This document shows, one piece after another, positions 4,301 through 27,065 of a stretch of 64,000 nt of DNA; the stretch's first letter is position 1; every line of letters starts with the position of its first letter. The translations under genes and the position numbers were made by a program. Below the pieces are notes generated by a model. It had not been told where the DNA came from, did no database searches, and saw only the letters and a list, made by a program, of their open reading frames with translations. Origin of the DNA: Candidatus Dojkabacteria bacterium (lineage in GTDB: Bacteria > Patescibacteriota > Dojkabacteria > J137); the NCBI GenBank assembly GCA_025999215.1, contig AP024679.1, positions 711,457 through 775,456 of the forward strand. The letters are read 5' to 3'.

Positions 4301-5107
4301 TTAATTGACTCTTTCTAACTGTTCTTCAATAACTTGTTTAAATACGCTGTACGGTTGTGCTCCAGCAACATTTACGCCATCAACATTTCCGTTTTCATCT
4401 AATACACCTATTATAAATCCTGGGGTTCCATTGATTCCAGCTGCAGTTCCATCTTGTATATCTCTTTGTATTTCATCCAAAAATTTATCTGATGCAACAC
4501 AGTTTTTAACTTCATCCTGATTTACTCCAATTTGACTTGCAAGAGTATATAGTTGGTCTTCTTTCATTCCATTTCCGTTAGAATTTGTTGTCTCAAAAAT
4601 TAATTTTGAATATTCAAAGTACTTATCATCTCCAGCAATATCTTGTACACACTCTGCAGCTAGTGCTTGAGTTGTTGCCAACGGATCATGAAAACTCAAA
4701 GGGAAATCTCTGTAAACTATGATTGCTTTTCCAGTATTTACAAATTCTTCTACTATCTGATCAAAAGTTTCCTGGTGATGCCTCTTACAGAATGGACATT
4801 CATAGTCGCTAAATTCAACTATAGCAACTTTAGCTTTATTTCTATCACCTAGTACTGGATCATCATCAATTGATACCTGAGCTTTTACATTAGCATCATC
4901 TGGCACAACAACTGGATCCGCAACATTAGAGCCTGCATCTGATGTTTCTTTTGTATTTATTTGTACATTCTTAAAACTAAAGTAAAAAGATAGTGAAAGT
5001 GATAATGATAAGATAATTGATGAAAGTAAAATTGATGCAGGAGTTAATATCTGTTCTACAGAAAGCTTTATTACTTTTTCATCTGTTGTGTTTTTTTTTC
5101 TTGCCAT
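4301..5107 (-). CDS. DsbA-family thiol:disulfide oxidoreductase (membrane-anchored, extracytoplasmic)
   Basis: 268 aa with an N-terminal TM anchor. The thioredoxin-fold active site is YECPFCKRHH, and the C-terminal GINGTPGFIIG (cis-Pro loop) is typical of DsbA. Confidence 0.75.
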   Translation of the reverse strand: MARKKNTTDEKVIKLSVEQILTPASILLSSIILSLSLSLSFYFSFKNVQINTKETSDAGSNVADPVVVPDDANVKAQVSIDDDPVLGDRNKAKVAIVEFSDYECPFCKRHHQETFDQIVEEFVNTGKAIIVYRDFPLSFHDPLATTQALAAECVQDIAGDDKYFEYSKLIFETTNSNGNGMKEDQLYTLASQIGVNQDEVKNCVASDKFLDEIQRDIQDGTAAGINGTPGFIIGVLDENGNVDGVNVAGAQPYSVFKQVIEEQLERVN

Positions 5108-5160
5108 AAAATTAAAAATAAAAGTTAACTATTAAAATTCTTATTTATTCTAACACTATT

Positions 5161-5871
5161 TTAAATTTTGTCAAAATTTTTTATTTTTCCACTTTCCATA
5201 TAAATTATTCTATCTGTTTTTTCGGCAATTTCTTGATCATGAGTCACTACTACCAAGGTAACACCTAATTCGTGATTCAGTTTAACCATTAAATCAAAAA
5301 TTTCGAAAGCTGTTTTTCTGTCTAAATTTCCAGTTGGTTCATCCGCCCAAATGACTTCAGGTGAATGAACTAATGCTCTAGCAATCGTAACCCTTTGCTT
5401 TTGGCCACCAGACAATTCATTTGGCTTATGATAGTATCTTTCACTAAGCCCGACTTTGTCTAACATTAATTTTGCCTTTTTTCTTGCTTCTTTGGGCTTG
5501 TAACCATTTAGTAATAACGGTAACTCAACATTTTCAAGTGCATTCAAAACTGGTATTAAATTAAAACTTTGAAATATAAAACCCATTTTCTGTGATCTGT
5601 ATTTTGTTTTTTTATTGTCTGACATCTTTTGCAAGTTTTGTCTTGCTATCCAAATTTCACCTCTAGTTGCATCATCTATACCTGAAATACAGTTTAGTAA
5701 AGTTGTTTTTCCGCTTCCTGATGGCCCCATGATTGTTAGTGCTTCTCCTTTTCTAATTTGTAAATTTATATCAGATAAAGCAACTACCTCATTTGGCATT
5801 CCTTTGTTAAAAATTTTTACAACATTTTTTGCTTCTATCAAAAAATCATTGTTTTCTTGTTTTTGCTTCAT
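5161..5871 (-). CDS. ABC transporter ATP-binding protein (MacB/LolD family)
   Basis: Walker A GPSGSGKTT, the LSGGQKQRVTIARAL signature, Walker B VIWADEPTGNLD, and the H-loop VVVTHD. Confidence 0.85.
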   Translation of the reverse strand: MKQKQENNDFLIEAKNVVKIFNKGMPNEVVALSDINLQIRKGEALTIMGPSGSGKTTLLNCISGIDDATRGEIWIARQNLQKMSDNKKTKYRSQKMGFIFQSFNLIPVLNALENVELPLLLNGYKPKEARKKAKLMLDKVGLSERYYHKPNELSGGQKQRVTIARALVHSPEVIWADEPTGNLDRKTAFEIFDLMVKLNHELGVTLVVVTHDQEIAEKTDRIIYMESGKIKNFDKI

Positions 5872-5887
5872 AATTGTATTTTAAAAT

Positions 5888-8800
5888 TTATTCTACATAA
5901 TTTGTCGCCTCTACGGGACTTAATTTAGAGGCTTTAATTGACGGCAGTAATGCAAACAACATTGAGAATAAGTAAATCAATATTGCAATAAAAATAATCT
6001 CACCCCAAGGAACAATTATACTCAAATTAGGATTCTCCTCTCCAACAGAATTAAAAATTGTAACAGTACCTATCACACCCATTGCAACGCCCAAAATTAT
6101 TGCAATTGTTGCAATAAAAGTAGATTCGATAAAAAACATCAAAAGAATCATTTGTTTTTGAAATCCAAGGCTTCTTAACATTCCAATTTGTTGTTTTCTC
6201 TCATTAACTGATCTTGTGATAATTATAGCTAGGCCTGAAGCCCCCACAATTAAACTAAACGCTAAAAATCCTTGAGTTAACCTATATAAACTTTTAATAA
6301 AACTCAAGAAAGATTCTGATAAATCGTTAACATCAAAAAAAGCAACAATATTATAGTTACTTAACTTTTCTTTTAAAGTTTTTTTAACTTCCTCAGACAC
6401 TTCATTATTAATATCAACCAAAATTTGAGCATCTGAACTCTCATAAACTGTATCTAAACCGAAATCCTCAATTACAGTATTTTCAGGAATGATTAAATAT
6501 TCCAAAACAGTAAAACCTCTCTGTACTGTATTTGGCTCCAATATTCCTATCACCTCTTTTTCTACAATTTTTGTGTTAGTCAAGTCGCTAATTTTAATTT
6601 TATCTCCCACTTTAAAGTTTGGCATTGGGCCATAGCCTTGACTGTTAAAGGCAGTTCCTAAAACCACATAATCTTTGTTCCCAAACAAAGCATCCCAAAC
6701 TTCACTTTCATTTTGAAAAGTTTCTTTAAATTCTAAAAAATTTAGATCAAGTAGATTAATGTATTCTCTGCTAACCACGTTAATTTTAGTTGAAAAATTA
6801 TCTTCAGGTTTGAAAATGGGCGCTTGATTAGGATTACCAAAATATGGTTTGTTTTCAAGATCTTTATACTTAATATTTGGAAATTCTATGTTCATATTTA
6901 TAACTTTTTCTACACCAATTACATTTTCTGTTTTTTCAATATCGATAATCAAATCTTCTATACCTTCAAACAACTCTCTAGTTATTGTATTTGGTACAAT
7001 AACTAGCTCATATCCACCAAGATTTTTACTTACTTCGTTATCCGCCAAACTATCTACAGAAGCCTTTTCAATGCTGATAAAAGATATTAAAAATATAACC
7101 AATGAAAACATTAGCAGGGTAAAACCAGTTCTAGATCTGTTAAATGATGGATACCTTAATCCCATCATAAATACAGGTATTAGTTTTGATGCTGGTGAAA
7201 AAATTATTTTAATAAGTTTAGTTATAGCAACCAAATTAAATGATGTAATAATTGCTGAAGCTACAACTAAATTAACCCCAGAAATAAATATTAAACCTAC
7301 AGCTTCTTCGTATTTTAGCAGTTTAGTCAAGTAAGAAATTTCAGGCATCATTACAGTTACAACTATCAATGTTATCAAGCTCAAAGTGTAATAGAAACTA
7401 AGCATATCTTTTTTAAAGATCAGCCATGTAATTCTTCCTAAAAGTATTGCTCCAAAAATCAAAGCCCCAGTCAAACCAAGATAAAACGAATAACCTTGAA
7501 AAACCTCAGTATACCTTTGAACTTCTTGTTCGTTTAACCCTTGAAAAAAGCTATCTTTAAAATTTTCAATAAAAAATGTAAAAATAAATAAGGTCAAAAA
7601 ATTTATTGTTAAAAGGAAAATACCAAGAGTCCCTAGTATCCATTTTAAATTGATCTTTTTTGCTTTTTCTTCGCTCAAATCACGAATAGCGCTGACTATA
7701 GAAAAATTTGATATTCTCAAACTTACAAAGAGCGTAGTCAATATTGTAATAATTGATCCAACACAAAAAGCAATAACAAGACTTTCTAAATCAAAATCAA
7801 ACACTATTTCCAAATCCAATGAATTTGTAGATTTTAAAATTCCTTGAAAAGAACTTTGCAAAAAGTACGTTATCAAATAACCAATCCCCACACCAACTAT
7901 CACCCCAACGAATGATGAAATTAATGAATATATTGCACCCTCTATTACGAATGATAATGCTAATTTTCTTTTCGTTAAAGCAATTGCTCTCAATATGCCC
8001 ATCTCAAATTTTCTTTCGCTAGCTAACATCATGTATAAATTTATAATCAACAAAATTCCTGCCAAAATACCAAACATACTCAAAGCAATGAACATTGTAA
8101 CAAAAATTTTTAATCCATAACCATCGAGTGCTTCTTGTTTGATTTCATCTACAATCATAACTCTATCTTGAGTGGTAAATTCGTTAAAAATTGAAGATAA
8201 AATATTCGAAAAATTTATTGCATCATAATCATCAGGTATCACACCACCAACATGAGATATGAAAAAATAATTATATTTAGGTGAATTAAAATTTAAATTT
8301 TGTGCAACATAATAAATATCAGCAAAAATTTTTTCACCTCCCATCACTCCCTTTTCATCAGAAATATATTCAACTTTTAAAATTAATGGCTTATTACCTA
8401 AAATTACTCTAACCTCATCGCCAACTCTTAAATCCATTTTCTCAGAATACTCCTTTGAAATTACTATTCCATTTTGATTTTTAAAATTATTTACTTGTAT
8501 ACTTGAACTTCCAAAATTTTTTAATTGTTCAAAATCAATTCCGTAAAAATCAACCCCAAAAAAATTGTCAATTGTGGAGCCATCTATGTTCATTCTAATT
8601 TTTTGAGGAGACACTTGTAAGTATATCGCTGGCAAAAACCCATCAACTTGCCCAGTTTGTTGTAATTTGTTCGATATCTCATCAACTTCCGATTGTGTTA
8701 AAAATTTTTCAAAATAATTTTGATTTGCAAAAACTTGAGCATTTGCATCAACTTCACCAACTCTATTCTTTACTATCTTTAAAAAAGTAGCATCAAGACT

Positions 8801-9073: not shown

Positions 9074-10696
9074 ATGAAATATTTTAAATTATTTAAAATT
9101 TTGTCTTTAGTTTTACTGGTCGGTTGTTTGGCTTATTTCTTACTTTTAAATAATCATCAGGCAGATATTCCTAATTTTGCGAACAATTCTAATTCTACTG
9201 TTTGGTGGAATGATGATTTTGCATTTAGAAAAAGTTTTTATGTAAATGATTTAAATAAAATTGCTATCAAAATAAATCACGCTGATCTGACAATTTCTGG
9301 TTATTCTCAAACTGAAGGAGATGATTTGCAGGTAGTTTTTTGGGATGGTAAAGAACACCAAAGAATTGAAACAACTATTATTAATCCATTTAGTAACAAT
9401 ACTTTGATTGAATTTTTACCAATTGAAAAAGGAGAATATTACTTATACTTTGGAAACAAATCTTACATTCAAGATAATAAACCAGAAAATAATCAAATTA
9501 CAGATAATATCATTGAACTAAATTTAGAAAATTTTGAACATTTGGATTTTTCAGTTACCTCAAAGAAAAATTGGATTTTATACGACAGTTTAGACAATTT
9601 TTTTTATATTGATATTTTATTTGAGCCAAATTTAGATAAAGAAAAACAATATTATCTTTACGATAATGAAACTAAAGAAGCAATAGAAATAGAAAAAAAT
9701 TTGAATTTATTAAAAGTCCCACTCGACAAAATATATCCTGGACAAAAATATTTTAGCATTCTTGCATATTTTGACGATAAAGTTGTAAGAAGTAATAATT
9801 TCAGGATAAACATTTCATACCCTTTGTTCGTAGCATGGACAGTAAATTGGGAAGGTACCGATCCAGGCAGCGAAAACCAAAGTCTTGTTGATAAAATTTC
9901 AAAAAACTACTCTCTTCCTGTGACACATTTTTTTAATCCCAGAGTTTTAATCAAAAATGATATAACCGAAGCAAGAAAAATAGATATAGTTAATTGGTTA
10001 ATTGAGCGTCGTGAAAAACAAAAAGATGAAGTTGCCTTACATTTACACATGCATCACGACATGCTACTAAATGCAGGAGTTAAAACCATTGAAAATGTTG
10101 AAACTTGGAATGGAGATTTGAGAGGATATGACACCCCTCCCACTGTGTATAGTTATGAAGATTTTAAAAAGCTTTTGGCTTGGAGTTTAGATTTGCTCAA
10201 TTCTTACAATTTAAATCAAGTAAATGGATTCAGATCGGGTGGATGGTTTGCAAATGAAGAAATTTTGAGAGCTGTAGAAGATAGCGGATTCAAATACGAC
10301 TCCTCAAGTATTACACCATTTGAGATTGGTAAAAATAAATTTATACAAGATTGGAATATCAACCCAACATCCCAACCTTATTTTCCAAGTTACACTAATA
10401 AAAATCTCAAAAACGGGGATATGAAATTAATGGAAATACCGACAAACGGTGGAGAAAGTTTGTATTCACCACCAGAAAAATTAATTGAAAATTTTTATCA
10501 AAATTATTCACCTAATACTACCCTGAATAGTTCAAATATTATTGTTTTTGCCTCAAACATTGATTGGTTTTATCAAGAGGAACCTAAAATCAACATACTT
10601 TTTGAAGAAATTCAAAAATATAGATACGAACTAGATAGGGGTCCAGTTTGCTTCGTAACTATTCAAGAATATCTCACACAAACACAAAGCTTATAA
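9074..10696 (+). CDS. Secreted or membrane-anchored hypothetical protein, possibly CE4/NodB-like polysaccharide deacetylase-related
   Basis: 540 aa with an N-terminal signal anchor. The His-rich HLHMHHD segment and the GFRSGGW segment are reminiscent of NodB-homology motifs. The domain assignment is weak. Confidence 0.4.
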   Translation: MKYFKLFKILSLVLLVGCLAYFLLLNNHQADIPNFANNSNSTVWWNDDFAFRKSFYVNDLNKIAIKINHADLTISGYSQTEGDDLQVVFWDGKEHQRIETTIINPFSNNTLIEFLPIEKGEYYLYFGNKSYIQDNKPENNQITDNIIELNLENFEHLDFSVTSKKNWILYDSLDNFFYIDILFEPNLDKEKQYYLYDNETKEAIEIEKNLNLLKVPLDKIYPGQKYFSILAYFDDKVVRSNNFRINISYPLFVAWTVNWEGTDPGSENQSLVDKISKNYSLPVTHFFNPRVLIKNDITEARKIDIVNWLIERREKQKDEVALHLHMHHDMLLNAGVKTIENVETWNGDLRGYDTPPTVYSYEDFKKLLAWSLDLLNSYNLNQVNGFRSGGWFANEEILRAVEDSGFKYDSSSITPFEIGKNKFIQDWNINPTSQPYFPSYTNKNLKNGDMKLMEIPTNGGESLYSPPEKLIENFYQNYSPNTTLNSSNIIVFASNIDWFYQEEPKINILFEEIQKYRYELDRGPVCFVTIQEYLTQTQSL

Positions 10697-10700
10697 TAAA

Positions 10701-12002
10701 TTATGGTCTGTTGAGAGTGGTACTTCTTGGGAATGGTATTGTTTCTCTAATGTGATGTACTCCTGACAACCATCTTACCATTCTTTCTAAACCTAATCCA
10801 AAACCAGAATGAGGAACAGATCCGTATTTTCTAATATTCAAATACCATTCATACTCCTTTTTAGGATAGTTTCTTTTCTTAATTTCGTTTAACAGAACTT
10901 CATAGTCATCTTCTCTTTGACTACCACCAATTATTTCTCTAGCTTCTTCGGGAGCGATCAAATCGGCACACTTCGCTCGTTTTACTCCTCTTTCATCAAC
11001 AAAGCTCTTCATGTAAAAAGACTTTATCTCGAATGGATAGTCAGTAACAAAAACAGGAATTTGATATTTGTTACCTAATGCTATCTCTTCTTCAGTACTT
11101 AAATCATCGTTATAATCTACTTTAAGCCCATCTTTTTCGAGTTCTTGTTTTACCTCAAAATGACTTTTTCTTAAAAATTTGGTTTTTACACAATTTTCTA
11201 AAATTTTGGTATCTCTTTGTAAAATTTCAAGTTCTAATTTACAATTTTCAAGCGTGTCTTTAATTATTCTTTTAATCATTTTCTCTTGTAAATCCATATT
11301 CATATTTTGATCATAGTAAGCCATTTCAGCATCCATCATCCAAAACTCTGACAAATGATTCCTTGTTTTTGATTTCTCTGCTCTAAACACTGGGCCAAAG
11401 TCATAAACTTTTCCAAAACTCATGATTGCAGCTTCAGAATACAACTGCCCAGACTGAGTTAAATACATTTTTTCGTCATAAAAATCTAATTCAAAAAGTT
11501 GTGTTGTATCTTCGCAACTTGTTGGTTGCAAAATTGGAGTGTCAGTTCTGACAAAACCTTCTTCAGCAAAAAAGTTAGTTATACTCCTAAAAACCATGTC
11601 TCGTATTCTCAAAACCGCCCATGGAGTTTTAGATCTTAAATATAAATCCCTATTTTCAAATAAAAACTCTGGTCCATGCTCTTTTTTGCCAATTGGATAC
11701 TCAGGTGATAAATTGACTATCTCAATATGCATTACTTGTATTTCGTATTCTTCTTTTTTGGGGTGTTTAGTTATTGTACCATTTACAATAACTGATGATT
11801 CTATAGTCAAATTTTCGGCTGCTTCCCATACTTTTTCATCAACATTTTTTTGCTCCACTACGCCTTGTATAAAACCACTTCCATCTCTAAGTTGTAAAAA
11901 AATTATTTTACCACTAGATCTTTTATTGTACATCCAGCCTTTAATTTCTACCTTTTTATTAATAAATTTTGATGCATCTTTAATATAAAATTCCATATTC
12001 AA
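10701..12002 (-). CDS. asnS: Asparaginyl-tRNA synthetase (class IIb)
   Basis: 433 aa. It has an N-terminal OB fold (LRDGSGFIQ), motif 2 FRAEKSKTRNHLSEFWMMDAE, and a C-terminal GGSQRE...YGSVPHSGFGLGLER segment. The VPHSGFGLG form rather than PPHGG identifies AsnRS. Confidence 0.8.
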   Translation of the reverse strand: MNMEFYIKDASKFINKKVEIKGWMYNKRSSGKIIFLQLRDGSGFIQGVVEQKNVDEKVWEAAENLTIESSVIVNGTITKHPKKEEYEIQVMHIEIVNLSPEYPIGKKEHGPEFLFENRDLYLRSKTPWAVLRIRDMVFRSITNFFAEEGFVRTDTPILQPTSCEDTTQLFELDFYDEKMYLTQSGQLYSEAAIMSFGKVYDFGPVFRAEKSKTRNHLSEFWMMDAEMAYYDQNMNMDLQEKMIKRIIKDTLENCKLELEILQRDTKILENCVKTKFLRKSHFEVKQELEKDGLKVDYNDDLSTEEEIALGNKYQIPVFVTDYPFEIKSFYMKSFVDERGVKRAKCADLIAPEEAREIIGGSQREDDYEVLLNEIKKRNYPKKEYEWYLNIRKYGSVPHSGFGLGLERMVRWLSGVHHIRETIPFPRSTTLNRP

Positions 12003-12028
12003 ATAAATAATATGTATAATTTTTTTAA

Positions 12029-12511
12029 TTAATTTGAAATATCATCACTATCTAAAGTAGTTGAGGTTTTATCAATAAAAGCCAAAATTCCCCCTACAAT
12101 AATCAAAAGCATATTGGTGATAACAAAAAGCATAAATGCAGATTTTGTTACAAAAACTACATCAACTCCAGCTTGCGCGATTTCTAAAACATTATTTTTT
12201 TCTTTTGTATAATAATCAATAGATAAAATTAAATTTATTATAGGGATTATAACCATTACAAGTCCTGCTTGAAAATATAATTTATCTACAAAAATTGATA
12301 CTAACTGAGTCAGTAAAACTGCACAGGTAACTCCTACTATTACGTACTTAATATCTGCTTCTGAATCACTCCAAAGAGATGTAGTGTATTCTTCACCTTG
12401 AAATACCAAACCAATCCACTCCATAAAAAGACTAACAAAAAGAATAATCGTAAAAAATACAGAAATTGAAGTAATAAGTCTTTTTAAATTACTCATCTTT
12501 ACTCCACTCAC
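12029..12511 (-). CDS. Hypothetical small membrane protein
   Basis: 160 aa with 4 predicted TM helices. It sits between the two synthetase genes and its start overlaps the stop of the upstream gene. Confidence 0.45.
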   Translation of the reverse strand: MSGVKMSNLKRLITSISVFFTIILFVSLFMEWIGLVFQGEEYTTSLWSDSEADIKYVIVGVTCAVLLTQLVSIFVDKLYFQAGLVMVIIPIINLILSIDYYTKEKNNVLEIAQAGVDVVFVTKSAFMLFVITNMLLIIVGGILAFIDKTSTTLDSDDISN

Positions 12512-14306
12512 CTACGTGAGCATCTAAAATATTAAACAAATCTTGACTCTTCATCTCAATGGAACAAGTTCTCTTTCCACAATTAAAATCAATCACTTCC
12601 TCATTCAGTATGTTTTTATCAAGCAAAATCTCCATTCCTAGCAAATTGCCAAATGGTGGAATTCCTCCAATTTTTAAACCGTATTTACTTTCAATATTTT
12701 CTGGTTTTTCCATTTCAAAGTTTTCTCCTAAAAAATTTTTGATAAGTTTCAAATCAATTTTTCTATTTGCAGGAAGTGCAACCATTACATTTTTTCCAGT
12801 TTTTTTCCCTCTCAAAATGATAGCTTTTACTCCCTGTTCAATTCTTGTGCCTCTAACTTTTGAGGCTTCTTCGCTTGTTACAACCTCATCATGTTCATCA
12901 AACTTGTAATCAATACCATTTGAATCTAATATTCTCTTAATTTCATTAACTATTTCATCTTCACCAAAAACTTTTCTTTTAAAACTTACACTCGCAATGC
13001 GCTTTGTGTCTGATGGAAACAATACAGCTTCACGAATGTTATCAAGGCCTAGAAGTTGCATTGTAAATCTTTCTAGTCCCAAACCAAAACCTCCATGTTC
13101 AGGCATGCCATATTTGAAAATAGATAAATAATCTTCAAAATTATCTACATTTAACCCTTTGCTTTTTAAACTCACTTTTAATTCTTCATAATCACTAATT
13201 CTTTGACCTCCGCTTGATACTTCAGTACCATTACAAATCAAGTCCGCATATTCGCACACTTCAGGATTCTTAGAACTTGGTTTTGCATAAAAAGCACACT
13301 TAGATCTTGGAAAATGTGTTACAAAAACAAAATCAGATCCCGTTTCTTTTTTTGCGTAGCTTGAAATAAACTTTTCAGCATTTGGAGAAAGATCTTTTTC
13401 CGATCGTTCATCAATTCCTGTTTTTTGAAAGTACAACTCTAACACATCTTTTAATTTGATACGTAAAATTGGCTCTTCTGATAAAATCGCAAAATTTGGA
13501 AAAAATTTTTCTATTTCATCGTTTGCATTATTCATCACATGTTTATAAATAGCTCTAATTACTTTCTCTTCCCACTCTAAAATATCTTCCAAGCCATTAA
13601 TAAATCCTATTTCAAATTCCAATTGAGTTGCTTCTGTGACGTGTCTGCGAGTATTTGATTTCTCAGCTCTAAAACACTTGATACTACCAAACACTCTTTC
13701 AAAAACTCCAACCATGATTTGTTTATAAAGTTGGCTTGATTGTGCTAAGTTTGCTTCATATCCAAAGTAATCAACTTTAAATAATTCAGCACCTCCCTCA
13801 GTTGAAGCGCTAATGATTGCGGGGCCTATAAATTCGGTAAAACCATTTTCTATTAAAAATTTTCTGTATGCTTCTAATATCAATGCTTGAATTTTAAAAA
13901 CAGCCCTAATTTTTTCATTTCTTAAAGCAATGGGTCGAAACTCCAAAATTTTGTCAATGTTTGCATTAATTTCAGGCTTATTAATCTCTATTGGAGAAGG
14001 TTCAATAATCTTTTTAATAATTTTGATTTGTGGATCTATTATTTCTACACCGAGTTCTGTTTTATCTGTTTTTCTCACCTCACCAACAACTTCAATTACG
14101 CTACCAGGTTGCAAATTCTCAATTTCTTTTATTTGCTCTTTGTTTTCAATTACAACTTGAATGAATCCTTTTCCATCTCTTAGTATTAAAAATGCAATTT
14201 TACCTATGTTCCTTACTTTACTTAACCAACCTAGTAGTTTTACTTTTTCACCTGAGTATTCTTTCAATTGAGTGGAAAAAATTTTATTTTGTTGCACAAA
14301 ACTCAA
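12489..14306 (-). CDS. aspS: Aspartyl-tRNA synthetase, archaeal/eukaryal type, fused to a C-terminal YbaK/ProX-like aminoacyl-tRNA deacylase domain
   Basis: 605 aa. The synthetase core is the first roughly 435 aa: LRDGKGFIQ, FRAEKSNTRRHVTEATQLEFE, GGQRISD and MPEHGGFGLGLER, which is the Asp-type PxHGG form. The C-terminal roughly 170 aa carry the GGIPPFG loop characteristic of YbaK/ProX deacylases. Confidence 0.75.
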   Translation of the reverse strand: MSFVQQNKIFSTQLKEYSGEKVKLLGWLSKVRNIGKIAFLILRDGKGFIQVVIENKEQIKEIENLQPGSVIEVVGEVRKTDKTELGVEIIDPQIKIIKKIIEPSPIEINKPEINANIDKILEFRPIALRNEKIRAVFKIQALILEAYRKFLIENGFTEFIGPAIISASTEGGAELFKVDYFGYEANLAQSSQLYKQIMVGVFERVFGSIKCFRAEKSNTRRHVTEATQLEFEIGFINGLEDILEWEEKVIRAIYKHVMNNANDEIEKFFPNFAILSEEPILRIKLKDVLELYFQKTGIDERSEKDLSPNAEKFISSYAKKETGSDFVFVTHFPRSKCAFYAKPSSKNPEVCEYADLICNGTEVSSGGQRISDYEELKVSLKSKGLNVDNFEDYLSIFKYGMPEHGGFGLGLERFTMQLLGLDNIREAVLFPSDTKRIASVSFKRKVFGEDEIVNEIKRILDSNGIDYKFDEHDEVVTSEEASKVRGTRIEQGVKAIILRGKKTGKNVMVALPANRKIDLKLIKNFLGENFEMEKPENIESKYGLKIGGIPPFGNLLGMEILLDKNILNEEVIDFNCGKRTCSIEMKSQDLFNILDAHVGEWSKDE

Positions 14307-14495
14307 AATTTAAAAATTACGTAATCTATTTTACCTAATTATGGATTAGGAAACAAGAAAAATATAGTCCTAATATTTTATGCAAGGCCTTGCTTTAGGT
14401 TTGCGTACAACTACAATCTCAACTAATATTATCACCGAGAGATATGCTAGTCAACAGTAATTTAAATATCATTGAGTATTTTTAAAATATAAAAG

Positions 14496-14531
14496 TATTT
14501 TATTAGTGATAAAATATTGTGGTATAATGAT
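14496..14531 (+). promoter_or_regulatory. Candidate sigma70 promoter with an extended -10 (TGtgGTATAAT) upstream of efp
   Basis: TTAGTG lies around 14499. TATAAT lies at about 14524-14529 and is preceded by TGTGG, a TGn extended -10. The promoter is about 23 nt upstream of the efp ATG. Confidence 0.35.
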
Positions 14532-14552
14532 TTTACTTTTAATTATTAGATT

Positions 14553-15110
14553 ATGATACAAGGAAATCAAGTACGACGAGGAATGGTAATTATGCACAAT
14601 AATGAACCTTGTTTAGTTTTAGATCATCAACTTCGTGCCCAAGGTAGACAAGGTGGTTTAAACCAGACTAAGCTAAAAGGTTTATTAAGTGGAAGTATTA
14701 CTAATGTTAGGTTTAATGCAGCTGAAAAAGTAGAACCCGCTGACGTTAGCTACAAAACAATGCAGTATATTTTTGTTGATGGTGATAACGCTGTTTTTAT
14801 GGATCTTGAGACTTATGAGCAAATTTCAATACCTGTGGAAAATATTCCTATGGAAACAGCTTTTTTGAAAGAAGAGGAAAAATACATAGTTCAATTTTAT
14901 GAAGGTAAAGTCATATCCGTACAATTGCCCAAAAAAATTACTTTAAAAGTAACTAACGCTCCACAAGCAGTTAAAGGTGATACCGCAAACAATCCACAAA
15001 AAGAAGTTATAGTTGAAACCGGATACAAGCTTTTGGCTCCAATGTTTATAAAAGAAGGAGATTTGATTGAAATTAACACAGAAACTGGTTTATATTCAGG
15101 AAAAGCTTAA
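14553..15110 (+). CDS. efp: Elongation factor P
   Basis: 185 aa. It aligns with E. coli EF-P along its full length (three-domain architecture). The loop normally carrying the modified Lys34 reads AQGRQGG here, so Arg is at the tip. Confidence 0.9.
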   Translation: MIQGNQVRRGMVIMHNNEPCLVLDHQLRAQGRQGGLNQTKLKGLLSGSITNVRFNAAEKVEPADVSYKTMQYIFVDGDNAVFMDLETYEQISIPVENIPMETAFLKEEEKYIVQFYEGKVISVQLPKKITLKVTNAPQAVKGDTANNPQKEVIVETGYKLLAPMFIKEGDLIEINTETGLYSGKA

Positions 15111-24212: not shown

Positions 24213-25649
24213 TTGTATTATAACACTAAAGTTTTACTTTACAAAACTCAATATCTAAAATATAATTTGTTTGTGAAAAACAAATATCAAAAATATCTCG
24301 ATGAACTAATTGAATTACTGAAAATTCCAAGTATCTCCTCTTTGCCTACACATAAAAAAGATACTTTAAAAGCAGCAGAATTCATTATTGATGAATTAAA
24401 AAAGATTAATTTCAAAACGGAGTTATTTTACAGTAAAAAATATGGGGAAGAAAATCATTATCCTGTTATTTTCGCTGAAAAAATTTCAAATCCCAACAAC
24501 AAAACTATACTGATTTATGGTCACTATGATGTACAACCAGTTGATCCATTAACTGAATGGCTTACTGATCCTTTCAACCCAGAAATTAAGGAAGGTAAAA
24601 TCTATGCCAGAGGGGTAAATGACAATAAAGGTCAACTCTATACACATATTGCAGCACTCAAAGAATTAGATAAATGCTGGGGAGATAACTGGCCTGTGAA
24701 TGTAAAAATAATTTTTGAAGGTGAAGAAGAAAGTGGTGGCGAGACAATTGAAGCTTTTATTGATGAAAATAAAAATAATTCACTTTTGAAAGCGGACGTT
24801 TGCCTAGTCTCAGACACCCCTTGGATTAACAAAGATACTCCAGCAATACTAACTGGTTTACGAGGTATTGTTTATACACAAATTGATGTTAAAGCTTTTG
24901 ATGGTGATTTGCATTCTGGTGAATTTGGAGGAGCTGTCAGAAATCCCGCAAATGACCTTGCTTTTATAATTTCTAAACTTAAAGATGAAATTAGTGGAAA
25001 AATTTTAATACCTAACTTTTATGACAATGTTAAAGATTTTTCAAGTAATGAAAGAGAATTATTAAATAGTATCCCAGAAACAGAAAAACAATTTTTGAAA
25101 AATGCAAAAAATGCTAAAAGCACATTTATAGAATCTGGATACACTTTTATCGAAGGAAAAACAGTCAGACCAACGCTAGATGTAAATGGAATGTGGAGTG
25201 GATTTACTGAGGAAGGAGCCAAAACCATCATACCAGCAACAGCTCACGCAAAAGTAAGCATGAGGCTTGTACCCAATCAAGATCCCGAAAAAATATTTGA
25301 ATTATTTAAAAATTATGTGTTAAATATAGCTCCTGAGGGTCTAGATATAAGCGTTAATTTGATACATGGTGGCGAGTGGGTATCGACTTCAATTGATTCT
25401 GATTATGTTAAAATTGCTCAAAAAGCAATTAAAAAGGTTTTCAAAAAAGAAGCGCTTTTTTTCAAAGAAGGAGGATCAATTCCAGCAATTGCCAAAATAC
25501 AAAAAGCTTTAAATGTCGAGCCTGTTTTTTTGGGGTACGGGTTGCCAGATGATGCTTTACATAGCCCAAATGAAAAATTTGATTTAGACCAATTTTTTGG
25601 TGGTATTGATTGTAATATTGAGTTTTTTAAGTTAATATCAAAATCATGA
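24213..25649 (+). CDS. M20-family dipeptidase/deacylase (ArgE/DapE/ACY1/CPG2 family)
   Basis: 478 aa with YGHYDVQPVD, GVNDNKGQL and GEEESGG motifs. The true start is probably downstream, for example the GTG near 24273. It ends in a TGA stop overlapping the gatA ATG (ATGA). Confidence 0.8.
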   Translation: MYYNTKVLLYKTQYLKYNLFVKNKYQKYLDELIELLKIPSISSLPTHKKDTLKAAEFIIDELKKINFKTELFYSKKYGEENHYPVIFAEKISNPNNKTILIYGHYDVQPVDPLTEWLTDPFNPEIKEGKIYARGVNDNKGQLYTHIAALKELDKCWGDNWPVNVKIIFEGEEESGGETIEAFIDENKNNSLLKADVCLVSDTPWINKDTPAILTGLRGIVYTQIDVKAFDGDLHSGEFGGAVRNPANDLAFIISKLKDEISGKILIPNFYDNVKDFSSNERELLNSIPETEKQFLKNAKNAKSTFIESGYTFIEGKTVRPTLDVNGMWSGFTEEGAKTIIPATAHAKVSMRLVPNQDPEKIFELFKNYVLNIAPEGLDISVNLIHGGEWVSTSIDSDYVKIAQKAIKKVFKKEALFFKEGGSIPAIAKIQKALNVEPVFLGYGLPDDALHSPNEKFDLDQFFGGIDCNIEFFKLISKS

Positions 25650-27065
25650 GAAATAGTTTAGATATTCCTCAAATACCAAAGATAAAAGAAATAGTGAGTT
25701 TGGTAAAAACGGGTGATATTAAACCTACTGATCTAGTTAAAGAGCACATCAAAAGAATTAAAAATACCGAAAAAAATTTAAATGCCTTCATAACAATTTT
25801 AGAAAAAGAAGCCCTTGAGAGAGCAAAACAAATTGAAGCGGAAATAAAAAAAGGAAATTTAAATGGAAAACTCCTTGGTATACCTTTCACCGTAAAAGAT
25901 TTATATCTTGTAGAAGATACAATAACAACTTTTGCATCGCAGTATATGAAGGATTTTGTAGCTCCTTATACTTCAACAGTTGTAAAAAAAGCTTTGGATG
26001 AAGGTGCTATTTTGATAGGAAAAACAAATTGTGATCCTTGGGGTTTTGGAGGAAGCGGAGAAAATTCAGGTTTTGGTCCGAGTAAAAATCCTTATGATTT
26101 AGAAAGAGTTCCGGGGGGGTCTAGTTCTGGCTCAGCTGCAAGCTTAGCTGCTGGAATTGGATTTTTCTCCTTAGGCACAGACACAGGAGGATCAGTGAGA
26201 TTACCTGCAAATTTCTGTGGCCTTTATGGATATAAGCCTACATACGGAAGAAACTCAAGGTTTGGAATTGGAGTCATGGCAAGCTCATTTGACACTCCTG
26301 GATTCTTTGCTAGACATATCGAAGATATTGAATTACTAGAAGAAATTTTTGAAGGAGTTGATGAAAACGATCAAACAACTGATATTGCTCCAGAGAGTAG
26401 AAAAAAAAGAAAAATTAAAGTTTGGTTTGCCGCTTGAATATTTTGAAGAAAATTTTGATAAAGATACTAAAGACGCAATAAATCAAATAACTGAATCATT
26501 AAGAAGTTCTGGCTACTCGATAGAAAATGTATCGATTCCATCTAGCAAATTTGGCTTAAGTGTATACTACATTCTAGTGCCATCAGAAATTTCGTCAAAT
26601 AGAGCGCGATACGACGGTGTTAGGTATGGTCCCTTTGTTTCTGAAGAATATGAAGAAAACTTAGTTGAAGGAAGAAGTAAATATTTTGAAGATGAAGTAA
26701 AAAGAAGAATAATGATAGGAACTTATGCACTTAGCGCAGGTTACGGTGATGAGCTTTATCTTAAAGCTACAAAAGTTAGAAACAAAATCAAGCAAGAATT
26801 TGACGAAGCATTTAAAAAAGTTGATATACTTTTAGCTCCAACATCACCATCGAAAGCTTTCAAACTAGGTGAAAAAATTAATGATCCTATTTCAATGTAT
26901 CTAACTGATCTCTACACTGTAAATGCCAACATTACTGGAATACCAGCAATAAATATTCCGTTAGGCATAAAAGACAGATTACCAATTGGAATGCAGTTAA
27001 TGGCTCAAAGATGGAATGATGAATATTTATTTCAAGCTAGTAGAGTTATTAGAGAGCTTTCTTAG
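25646..27065 (+). CDS. gatA: Glutamyl-tRNA(Gln)/Asp-tRNA(Asn) amidotransferase subunit A, frameshifted in this sequence within an A8 run near 26398-26408
   Basis: The two overlapping track ORFs are in different frames (25646 = frame 2, 26349 = frame 0). Together they cover a full-length amidase-signature GatA: GGSSSGSAAS, then after the shift KFGLPLEYF and the C-terminal PAINIPLG. The shift falls in GAGAGTAGAAAAAAAAGAAAAATTAAAG. Confidence 0.75.

Follow-up and report, generated by a model that had tools for sequence, protein, structure and literature searches.

An Archaeal-Type Aspartyl-tRNA Synthetase With a C-Terminal YeaK/YbaK-Fold Deacylase-Like Domain in Candidatus Dojkabacteria

Introduction

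Hydrolases of the INS type are known within class II synthetases from two kinds of ProRS. Bacterial ProRS carries an INS domain and ProRS fusions of protists carry an N-terminal ProXp-ala domain, and in both cases the hydrolase proofreads the product of its own synthetase (PMC11295145). The E. coli protein YeaK (ProXp-ST1) works in trans. Its substrates are Ser- and Thr-tRNAs, among them tRNA-Lys that LysRS has mischarged, and its tRNA specificity is broad (PMC11295145). Among the synthetases, the curated overviews consulted assign INS-type domains only to ProRS, and a 2024 review describes the remaining superfamily members as single-domain proteins. According to AARS Online, the only editing domains common to several synthetase families are Edit-LIV and Edit-AT.

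Here we describe an AspRS of a Candidatus Dojkabacteria bacterium that carries a domain of this superfamily at its C-terminus. Its gene lies in a stretch of 64,000 nucleotides of contig AP024679.1 (assembly GCA_025999215.1), hereafter the window, and all coordinates refer to positions in the window. The initial annotation of this DNA regarded the joining of an AspRS to a deacylase as a non-standard architecture, and indeed no prior description of a fusion between AspRS and an INS-type domain was found in the open-access literature searched.

The Gene and Its AspRS Part

The fusion gene, here termed aspS-edit, is one ORF on the minus strand (12489..14306, stop codon 12489..12491). It begins with a TTG start codon, contains no internal stops and encodes 605 residues. 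The deposited protein begins at a GTG start at 14297 and is 602 residues long. In this genome it is named 'hypothetical protein', while aspS-edit proteins are otherwise deposited as 'aspartate--tRNA ligase'. Because the entries carry only these names, the deacylase domain is invisible in the current annotation. Scanning 10400..14800 for promoters and terminators returned nothing exceeding shuffled expectation.

The AspRS part contains an OB-fold anticodon-binding domain (residues 22-96, 14019..14243, minus strand), which was identified by Pfam PF01336 tRNA_anti-codon (E 1.6e-15) and by alignment to 3nel and 1n9w. It is followed by a class II catalytic core (residues 119-433, 13008..13952, minus strand; Pfam tRNA-synt_2, PF00152) with the motif 3 sequence GGFGLGLER (13068..13094, minus strand). 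The core is unbroken and lacks the GAD insertion, and no Pfam match to GAD (PF02938) was found in the protein. The protein scores 483 bits with NF003483 (cut-off 353), against 269 bits with the AsnRS model and 132 bits with the LysRS model of NCBIfam. Models of bacterial-type AspRS give it 185-200 bits, under their cut-offs. The best solved relative of the core is T. thermophilus AspRS2 (1n9w, E 2.4e-96). The core is that of a class IIb AspRS of the archaeal/eukaryal type, in agreement with the archaeal type first assigned to it. The motifs on which the initial annotation relied are all present, with MPEHGGFGLG in AspRS, VPHSGFGLG in AsnRS and GGIPPFG at residues 547-553 of the fusion protein. 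'aspartate--tRNA(Asn) ligase', the name given by NCBIfam, merely labels the family and carries no evidence for the use of tRNA-Asn.

The discrimination of AspRS between tRNA-Asp and tRNA-Asn was also considered. In T. kodakarensis AspRS it is set by positions W26 and K85, with Trp and Lys in discriminating enzymes and His and Pro in non-discriminating ones. In the alignment with 3nel and 1n9w these positions are occupied by S29 and E84 of the window AspRS. Since this pair matches neither signature and both positions are variable in the fusion family, no conclusion on discrimination against tRNA-Asn is drawn from them. Likewise, no systematic difference was found between the anticodon-binding domains of 30 fused and 89 unfused bacterial-type AspRSs.

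A short linker of about 15 residues (434-449, TKRIASVSFKRKVFGE, 12960..13007, minus strand) begins after LFPSDxKR, the usual end of an archaeal-type AspRS. The AlphaFold model of the whole protein has a pLDDT of 89.3 and a pTM of 0.73, and the pLDDT in the linker is low, at about 65.

The C-Terminal Deacylase-Like Domain

The extra C-terminal part, put at about 170 residues in the initial annotation, measures 169 residues (437-605). Residues 450-603 (12498..12959, minus strand) make up a YeaK/YbaK-fold aminoacyl-tRNA deacylase-like domain, in which Pfam tRNA_edit (PF04073) matches residues 472-591 (nucleotides 12534..12893) with 79.5 bits (cut-off 25.5, E 2.8e-22). K494 (codon 12825..12827, minus strand) corresponds in the alignment to Lys46, the catalytic residue in H. 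influenzae YbaK, and is invariant in every fused and free relative examined. The GGIPPFG loop (residues 547-553, 12648..12668, minus strand) contains the Gly-x-x-x-Pro motif (G547..P551). Its residues G547, P550, P551 and G553 are invariant in an alignment of 65 sequences, and K494 together with the GxxPPFG loop is invariant in 121 fused proteins. H472, R485, F574, N575 and S582 are nearly invariant in fused and free forms alike. Overall, the domain is about as conserved as the anticodon-binding domain, with a mean top-residue frequency of 0.67 vs. 0.62. Its profile, fold, catalytic Lys and Gly-x-x-x-Pro loop place the domain in the INS/YbaK superfamily. The YbaK/ProX fold that was first proposed for this region has thus held up in the HMM scan, in the alignment of K494 with K46 of YbaK and in the intact loop.

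R485 (codon 12852..12854, minus strand) lies in an R-G-T motif and serves as a marker of the clade. It is kept in 129 of 138 clade members and in E. coli YeaK, and is replaced by Leu in YbaK and by Ala in 3op6. A role of R485 in binding the aspartyl carboxylate was considered, given its absence from YbaK and 3op6. This idea is weakened by YeaK, which also carries the R-G-T motif but deacylates Ser- and Thr-tRNAs.

Several comparisons bear on the place of the domain within the superfamily. BLASTP aligns it to E. coli YeaK with 29% identity (E 8e-18). With hhalign, the fusion family matches YeaK at E 2.2e-17 and YbaK at E 1.7e-10, seven orders of magnitude apart, and YeaK gets the higher score from 147 of the 153 members of the clade. 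A rough NJ tree puts YeaK close to the root of the clade, and by BLOSUM distance the window domain is about equally distant from YeaK and YbaK. Judged by sequence, YeaK/ProXp-ST1 is probably the closest relative among the characterized references compared, nearer than YbaK or ProXp-ala. Because of the 29% identity and the similar distance to YbaK, the amino-acid specificity of the domain may differ from that of YeaK. The domain is not YbaK in the strict sense, i.e., a Cys-tRNA-Pro deacylase, and its scores stay below the YbaK equivalog cut-offs (63.8 vs. 153.25 bits for TIGR00011 and 38.7 vs. 243 bits for NF007951). For the fused form, nothing supported tRNA-Pro as the target, which had initially been named as a possibility.

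Recurrence of the Fusion

The fusion is widespread among uncultured bacteria. Clustering at 90% identity gives more than 200 clusters with this architecture, which come from Ca. Dojkabacteria and from environmental Chlamydiota. Each of the 120 best clusters carries the fusion, down to 48% identity, and species-representative genomes contain 29 intact fusion ORFs of 593-633 residues. A missing stop codon, which the initial annotation named as something that could undo its reading, is contradicted by the open frame and by this recurrence. An artefact of assembly or annotation, in which the loss of a stop codon joins two genes, could be suspected from the L031 genome, where aspS, a stop codon and then the edit gene are found as separate ORFs. 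However, the same open frame is kept in the clusters across many samples and several assemblers and is also open in the 29 representative genomes. Moreover, the Logan assembly of run DRR290133, a run that may also underlie the deposited MAG, encodes the exact deposited 602-residue protein in an open frame. The fusion of AspRS and deacylase is genuine, and the chance of such an artefact is negligible.

Beyond what the initial annotation had covered, the domain clade was also found on another kind of AspRS and as free copies. On bacterial-type, GAD-containing AspRSs it is present in 30 of the best 120 clusters, Dojkabacteria among them. In the best 150 representative clusters AspRS is the only synthetase partner (8 archaeal-type and 12 bacterial-type), and 118 clusters are free-standing. 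Free copies have the same active-site signature as the fused domains. Two of them lie directly behind tRNA-Pro and tRNA-Ala genes, at 23 to 64 nt, against a background of about one tRNA per 50 kb in other scanned loci. The clade domain is also found beside Peptidase_S11, a D-Ala-D-Ala carboxypeptidase, or fused to it. A link to D-amino acids was considered from this and rejected. Peptidase_S11 follows bacterial-type aspS with or without the edit domain, and because this order is independent of the domain it reflects local gene order and gives no functional clue.

Gene Neighborhood

The asnS gene (10701..12002, minus strand) encodes an AsnRS of 433 residues, which scores 501.5 bits with NCBIfam NF003037 (cut-off 414) and 442 bits with TIGR00457 (cut-off 342.6), above the AsnRS equivalog cut-off. 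It was initially described as adjacent to aspS in tandem. The two genes are on the same strand with asnS downstream, but they are not directly adjacent. A 160-residue ORF with four hydrophobic segments and no family match (12029..12511, minus strand) lies between them, and a 50%-identical homologue occupies the same position in a relative (L088).

The gene order in relatives was read from flanks of 6-10 kb. The order aspS-edit ... asnS is kept in L088 and in a further relative, L089, which has a tRNA-Asn gene between the two. A cluster of aspS-edit, in some cases tRNA-Asn, and asnS is conserved in the window lineage, which adds to the initial annotation. Two tRNA-Asn genes in the clusters of relatives have U1-A72 and G73. 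In one case a free edit gene precedes asnS by 2 nt, at the place that the fusion takes in relatives. At 26 other fused loci, no asnS neighbor was found within the flanks of 6-10 kb. gatA, which had been reported in the window, is present there but is split by a frameshift at an A8 run (25646..26437 and 26349..27065, plus strand).

Possible Function of the Fusion Protein

We infer that the C-terminal domain hydrolyzes aminoacyl-tRNA, and its substrate and its mode of action, in cis or after recapture, are proposed in the same way. We tentatively favor a natural two-function enzyme that combines an archaeal-type AspRS with an autonomous deacylase domain of the YeaK clade, a reading that we place a little short of an even chance. 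With its OB-fold anticodon domain the AspRS part would bind a tRNA and then charge it. If the amino acid esterified to the CCA end were a wrong one, the tethered domain would hydrolyze the ester with Lys494 and the GxxPP loop, both conserved, either while the tRNA is still bound or after it has been quickly recaptured. Homology to YeaK suggests that such an amino acid would be a small hydroxylated one of the Ser/Thr type. The tether would provide a tRNA-Asp/tRNA-Asn address for a deacylase that is otherwise unselective for tRNA. The position of the free copy just before asnS and the presence of tRNA-Asn in the cluster suggest that the edit module also serves AsnRS and tRNA-Asn. We know of no report of misactivation of Ser or Thr by AspRS. 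To our knowledge AspRS and its fellow class IIb enzymes AsnRS and LysRS are regarded as lacking an editing domain. The predominance of free-standing copies, two of them behind tRNA-Pro and tRNA-Ala genes, speaks against a two-function enzyme and fits a general trans-acting factor.

The appended domain could also act on a product of AspRS itself, hydrolyzing Asp-tRNA-Asn made by a relaxed AspRS and sparing Asp-tRNA-Asp. It would read the acceptor stem (U1-A72 vs. G1-C72), Asn-tRNA-Asn would be made directly by AsnRS, and Asp would be kept out of Asn codons. The similarity of the core to the non-discriminating AspRS2, the conserved cluster with tRNA-Asn and asnS, the free edit gene 2 nt 5' of asnS and the U1-A72 and G73 of the two tRNA-Asn genes are all consistent with this. 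A precedent for the removal of a free transamidation intermediate exists in H. pylori GluRS2, which deacylates excess Glu-tRNA-Gln (PMC3241645). Environmental chlamydiae such as P. amoebophila have AsnRS (PMC2490706), and the fusions in Chlamydiota can therefore be reconciled with hydrolysis of Asp-tRNA-Asn. However, free copies unlinked to aspS or asnS have an identical active-site signature, YeaK, a Ser/Thr deacylase, shares it, and R485, first taken for a carboxylate binder, is found in YeaK too. The anticodon-binding domains of fused and unfused bacterial-type AspRSs do not differ systematically, and asnS is absent from the neighborhood of the 26 other fused loci. The discrimination of AspRS can be shifted by replacing single residues of the anticodon domain, and a whole editing domain therefore seems a costly device for this purpose. 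We regard hydrolysis of Asp-tRNA-Asn as an unlikely main function.

It is comparably doubtful that the domain is a broad YeaK-like trans-editing factor for which AspRS is a stable and abundant dimeric scaffold or an expression partner. Such a factor would clear the errors of other synthetases, e.g., Ser-tRNA-Ala or Thr-tRNA-Lys. The free-standing majority of the clade (118 of the best 150), the copies close behind tRNA-Pro and tRNA-Ala genes and the broad tRNA range of ProXp-ST1 (PMC11295145) point in this direction, and the fusion to Peptidase_S11 indicates that fusion can simply track gene order. Against it, AspRS of two non-orthologous types is the sole synthetase partner in those clusters, a relative without a fused AspRS keeps the domain beside asnS, and the linker is short. 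A non-catalytic YbaK-fold appendage that binds tRNA or protein, for instance in tRNA-Asn retention or GatCAB docking, would have a parallel in SadB, an adaptor of P. aeruginosa with a YbaK-like domain. Archaeal-type AspRS has no GAD insertion, a part that has been proposed to aid retention of Asp-tRNA-Asn by the bacterial-type ND-AspRS (PMC3367201). We consider a non-catalytic appendage very improbable in view of the invariant K494, G547, P550, P551 and G553 and the near-invariant H472, R485, F574, N575 and S582 in fused and free forms, and of the occurrence of the domain on bacterial-type AspRSs that already carry GAD.

Significance and Comparison With Known Systems

On AspRS of two non-orthologous kinds, a YeaK-like deacylase has repeatedly been added, and where there is no fusion it is kept as a free gene beside asnS. 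This pattern points to an undescribed fidelity problem in Asp/Asn decoding in the CPR Dojkabacteria and the environmental Chlamydiota, two large host-dependent bacterial groups. If an error of the Ser/Thr type is cleared, AspRS would join the editing synthetases. If Asp-tRNA-Asn is cleared, the boundary between Asp and Asn in the genetic code would be policed in a new way. A class IIb synthetase would then proofread by tRNA identity, AspRS would discriminate through editing, and bacteria that have gone over to AsnRS would possess a hydrolytic counterpart of the GatCAB route.

For the synthetase part, the nearest solved core is that of T. thermophilus AspRS2 (1n9w), which represents the non-discriminating AspRS of archaeal type found in bacteria. 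AspRS2 stops where the linker of the window protein starts, and it has His and Pro where the window protein has S29 and E84. For the domain, H472, the R485-G-T motif, G492, K494, the PPF loop, FNxG and S582 are in common with YeaK. YeaK is a single-domain protein that works in trans on many tRNAs, whereas the window domain is covalently attached as the C-terminus of an AspRS. ProXp-ST1 is by definition free-standing and single-domain, and in this respect the C-terminal part of a 605-residue AspRS differs from it. At the positions of R485, G492, P550 and S582 in the window clade, YbaK carries Leu, Val, Ser and Asp, and it has an insertion of two residues before the helix relative to the clade. 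The best sequence match to the C-terminal domain in the PDB is L. pneumophila lpg1207 (3op6; E 3.9e-12, 27% identity), an uncharacterized YbaK-like protein that is free-standing and lacks S478, R485, G492 and S582. ProRS is a class IIa enzyme. In the ProRS cases the INS domain lies in the catalytic core or at the N-terminus, belongs to another clade and is Ala-specific, whereas in the window protein the domain is C-terminal on a class IIb AspRS.

The Fused Gene and Its Domains

The gene aspS-edit (12489..14306, minus strand) is one ORF of 605 aa without interruption. Its start codon is ambiguous: TTG at 14306 gives the longest ORF, while GTG at 14297 gives the 602-aa product deposited from a Candidatus Dojkabacteria (CPR) genome as "hypothetical protein KatS3mg085_696". 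Pfam recognizes an OB-fold anticodon-binding domain at residues 22-96, a class II D/K/N catalytic core at residues 119-433 and a tRNA_edit domain (PF04073) at residues 472-591. The AspRS part is matched over its full length by Thermus thermophilus AspRS2 (1n9w, E 2.4e-96) and, in an alignment, by T. kodakarensis AspRS. It closes with the usual LFPSDxKR, which is followed by about 15 weakly conserved residues and, from about residue 450, by a YbaK-type fold. The aligned counterpart of K494 in Haemophilus influenzae YbaK is the catalytic Lys46. An alignment of 65 sequences shows no variation at K494, H472, R485, G492, G547, P550, P551, G553, and F574 and very little (at least 90% conservation) at N575, G577, and S582.

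The motifs quoted in the initial annotation are all found in the window, and its assignment of the two synthetases agrees with NCBIfam. Residues 1-437 score 483 bits with the archaeal-type AspRS model NF003483 and 269 bits with the AsnRS model; the neighbouring asnS (10701..12002, minus strand) scores 501 bits as AsnRS. The proposal of a YbaK/ProX-like C-terminal domain is supported, with a refinement. The tRNA_edit match is significant (79.5 bits; gathering score, 25.5), but YbaK proper is ruled out by a score of 63.8 bits, far under the NCBIfam cut-off of 153.

Distribution of the Fusion

The fusion is genuine. Its possible origin from a missing stop codon is contradicted by the same architecture in related genomes, and an artefact has a negligible probability. 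All of the best 120 clusters (at 90% identity) share the three Pfam domains; these proteins are 594-621 aa long, are down to 48% identical and come from Dojkabacteria and Chlamydiae/Parachlamydiaceae. A chlamydial member used as query returned a further 120 fused clusters, each with 73% identity to it or more. When species-representative genomes were scanned, 29 fused ORFs were found intact, with lengths of 593-633 aa; they belong to Dojkabacteria, other CPR MAGs, Parachlamydiales, Rhabdochlamydiaceae and a few MAGs classed as Verrucomicrobia, Bdellovibrionota, Gammaproteobacteria, and Legionellaceae. Across 121 aligned fused proteins, the edit domain matches the anticodon-binding domain in conservation, with mean top-residue frequencies of 0.67 and 0.62, respectively. 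The deposited 602-aa protein is also encoded exactly in the Logan assembly of run DRR290133, which is not necessarily independent of the deposited MAG.

Those from the Bdellovibrionota, Gammaproteobacteria, and Legionellaceae MAGs are 41-47% identical and could reflect horizontal transfer or mis-binned chlamydial contigs. In a chlamydial MAG (locus L032, about 5018..6418) the fused gene is degraded over several frames and is an apparent pseudogene.

Relationship of the Edit Domain

The C-terminal 165 residues were searched against 1.84 billion representative proteins, which gave 2115 matches at E<=1e-3 and 397 at E<=1e-10. Among the best 150, 118 are free-standing proteins of 120-200 aa (up to 50-52% identity), 12 clusters are fused to bacterial-type AspRS with a GAD domain and eight to archaeal-type AspRS, two are fused to Peptidase_S11, one is a triple tandem of the domain, and the rest are proteins of 200-300 aa with no recognized partner. 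No synthetase other than AspRS occurs as a partner among these 150. The triple tandem (P0181, 448 aa) consists of three tRNA_edit domains and nothing else.

By sequence comparison, the closest characterized relative of the edit domain is YeaK. With the Escherichia coli yeaK and ybaK references taken from the K-12 record, YeaK is 29% identical to the domain (BLASTP, E 8e-18), and the family profile aligns to YeaK at E 2.2e-17 vs. 1.7e-10 for YbaK (hhalign). Of the 153 sequences in the clade, 147 score higher to YeaK, with which some free members share 43-46% identity. YeaK and the edit domain share the R-G-T motif, G492, K494, PPF, FNxG, and S582. The clade signature (S478, R485, G492, P550, F574-N575, and S582) is identical between fused and free members and is absent from YbaK and from the YbaK-like Legionella pneumophila protein lpg1207 (3op6). 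YeaK, or ProXp-ST1, deacylates Ser- and Thr-tRNAs over a broad tRNA range that includes tRNA-Lys (PMC11295145). Because a rough NJ tree places YeaK close to the base of the set, the domain is best termed YeaK-like and not a proven orthologue of ProXp-ST1.

Fused, Split, and Free Forms

The edit domain is found at the C-terminus of two non-orthologous types of AspRS. The bacterial-type fusions (740-758 aa) make up 30 of the 120 clusters that lie closest to the protein P0132 and are also present in Dojkabacteria, Nomurabacteria, and other Patescibacteria; sisters at 67% identity are without the domain. Some CPR bacterial-type AspRSs (P0354-P0359, 735-744 aa) exceed the usual length by about 150 aa; they have no edit domain and a normal C-terminus, the extra length lying elsewhere. 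A split form is found in a CPR MAG (L031, 1048..3944), where a 447-aa aspS has its own stop and a separate edit gene starts 7 nt on (ATG at about 2399, to 2884), followed by a D-Ala-D-Ala carboxypeptidase-like gene with an SITK motif. The NJ tree intermingles the fused with the free domains, a pattern that suggests fusion or fission on several occasions.

Two proteins, P0240 (505 aa) and P0264 (486 aa), carry the edit domain N-terminal to Peptidase_S11. In Dojkabacteria a Peptidase_S11 gene follows bacterial-type aspS with or without the edit domain (L082, L090, and L091 were examined), so these fusions mirror gene order.

Gene Neighbourhood

The two synthetase genes had been described as adjacent; an ORF of 160 aa (12029..12511, minus strand), with four hydrophobic segments, separates them and overlaps the 3' end of aspS-edit. 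Neither Pfam nor NCBIfam gives a match for it. In the homologous locus L088 its place is taken by a 50% identical homologue, and none is found in L089. The order aspS-edit, (small membrane ORF), asnS, DUF2334-like gene is kept in the lineage of the window, with synthetases 72% and 79% identical in L088 and 63% and 72% in L089. In L089, a tRNA-Asn(GTT) gene (8095..8166) lies between aspS-edit and asnS. In the same neighbourhood at L083, a free edit copy (49% identical) lies 2 nt upstream of asnS, and a tRNA-Asn gene (6934..7007) lies about 1 kb upstream of both. Both tRNA-Asn genes have U1-A72 and G73. No aspS remnant is found at the L083 locus; the edit module is retained there despite loss of the AspRS moiety.

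A 540-aa ORF adjoins asnS in the window (9074..10696, plus strand) and is kept beside asnS in L083, L088, and L089 (37-55% identity). Pfam finds DUF2334 in the called genes of L083 and L089; that of L088 has no Pfam match.

tRNA Discrimination and gatA

In T. kodakarensis AspRS, two positions switch the enzyme between a discriminating form (W26 and K85) and a non-discriminating one (H and P). The window AspRS aligns S29 and E84 there, which fits neither pair; T. thermophilus AspRS2 has H and P, and the aspS-edit family varies at both. The gatA gene noted in the initial annotation is present (25646..27065, plus strand) but split into two overlapping ORFs, which match gatA profile positions 4-231 and 238-461. 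The frame changes at an A8 run (26399..26407); the split may represent a homopolymer or sequencing error, a pseudogene or a site of transcriptional slippage. The scan for gatB took in the 20 larger window ORFs and gave no match; gatC would be expected among the smaller ones.

Possible Functions of the Fusion

The best-supported reading, which we hold tentatively, is that aspS-edit carries a tethered post-transfer editing module. The AspRS part would provide tRNA binding, and the YeaK-like domain would hydrolyse a wrong aminoacyl ester, by homology of the Ser/Thr type, on tRNA-Asp and possibly tRNA-Asn too. Three points favour this: the catalytic residues are intact, the partnership with AspRS is exclusive and repeated, and the linker is short. 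LysRS is a class IIb synthetase that is not known to have an editing domain. It offers a precedent, as ProXp-ST1 removes Ser and Thr from tRNA-Lys mischarged by LysRS (PMC11295145). The most interesting rival, hydrolysis of Asp-tRNA-Asn by the edit domain, is unlikely. It draws on the asnS/tRNA-Asn gene context and on the resemblance of the core to the non-discriminating AspRS2, but unlinked free copies and YeaK have the same active site, and AspRS discrimination shifts easily by point mutation. It does fit Chlamydiota, as AsnRS is present in P. amoebophila (PMC2490706), and has a functional precedent in GluRS2, which clears excess Glu-tRNA-Gln (PMC3241645).

We also doubt that the domain is a general trans-editing factor with AspRS as a mere carrier, although several observations count against a strict tie to AspRS. 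Besides the L083 copy, three free copies lack a neighbouring synthetase gene. Two of these lie 23 nt behind tRNA-Pro(GGG) in L084 (4903..4978) and 64 nt behind tRNA-Ala(GGC) in L086 (4863..4937; see also L085 and L087), whereas the other loci scanned have only about one tRNA gene per 50 kb. In chlamydial loci asnS does not adjoin the fused gene, and pnp lies upstream in eight of these. A non-catalytic adaptor, like the YbaK-like domain of SadB, is highly improbable, the catalytic residues being intact.

Comparison With Known Editing Systems

No description of an AspRS with an INS/YbaK-type domain was found in the searchable literature, and public fused sequences carry the plain annotation aspartate--tRNA ligase. 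In AARS Online, Edit-LIV and Edit-AT are the only editing domains given as common to at least two synthetase families (PMC11580382), and ProXp-7, -8, and -9 are uncharacterized (PMC11295145). The hydrolase family is known; what is new is its recurrent pairing with a class of synthetases considered to lack editing. A protist ProXp-ala-ProRS fusion and a plant C-terminal domain have been described separately (PMC11295145). The protist protein joins ProRS with ProXp-ala, whereas aspS-edit joins AspRS with a YeaK-like domain.
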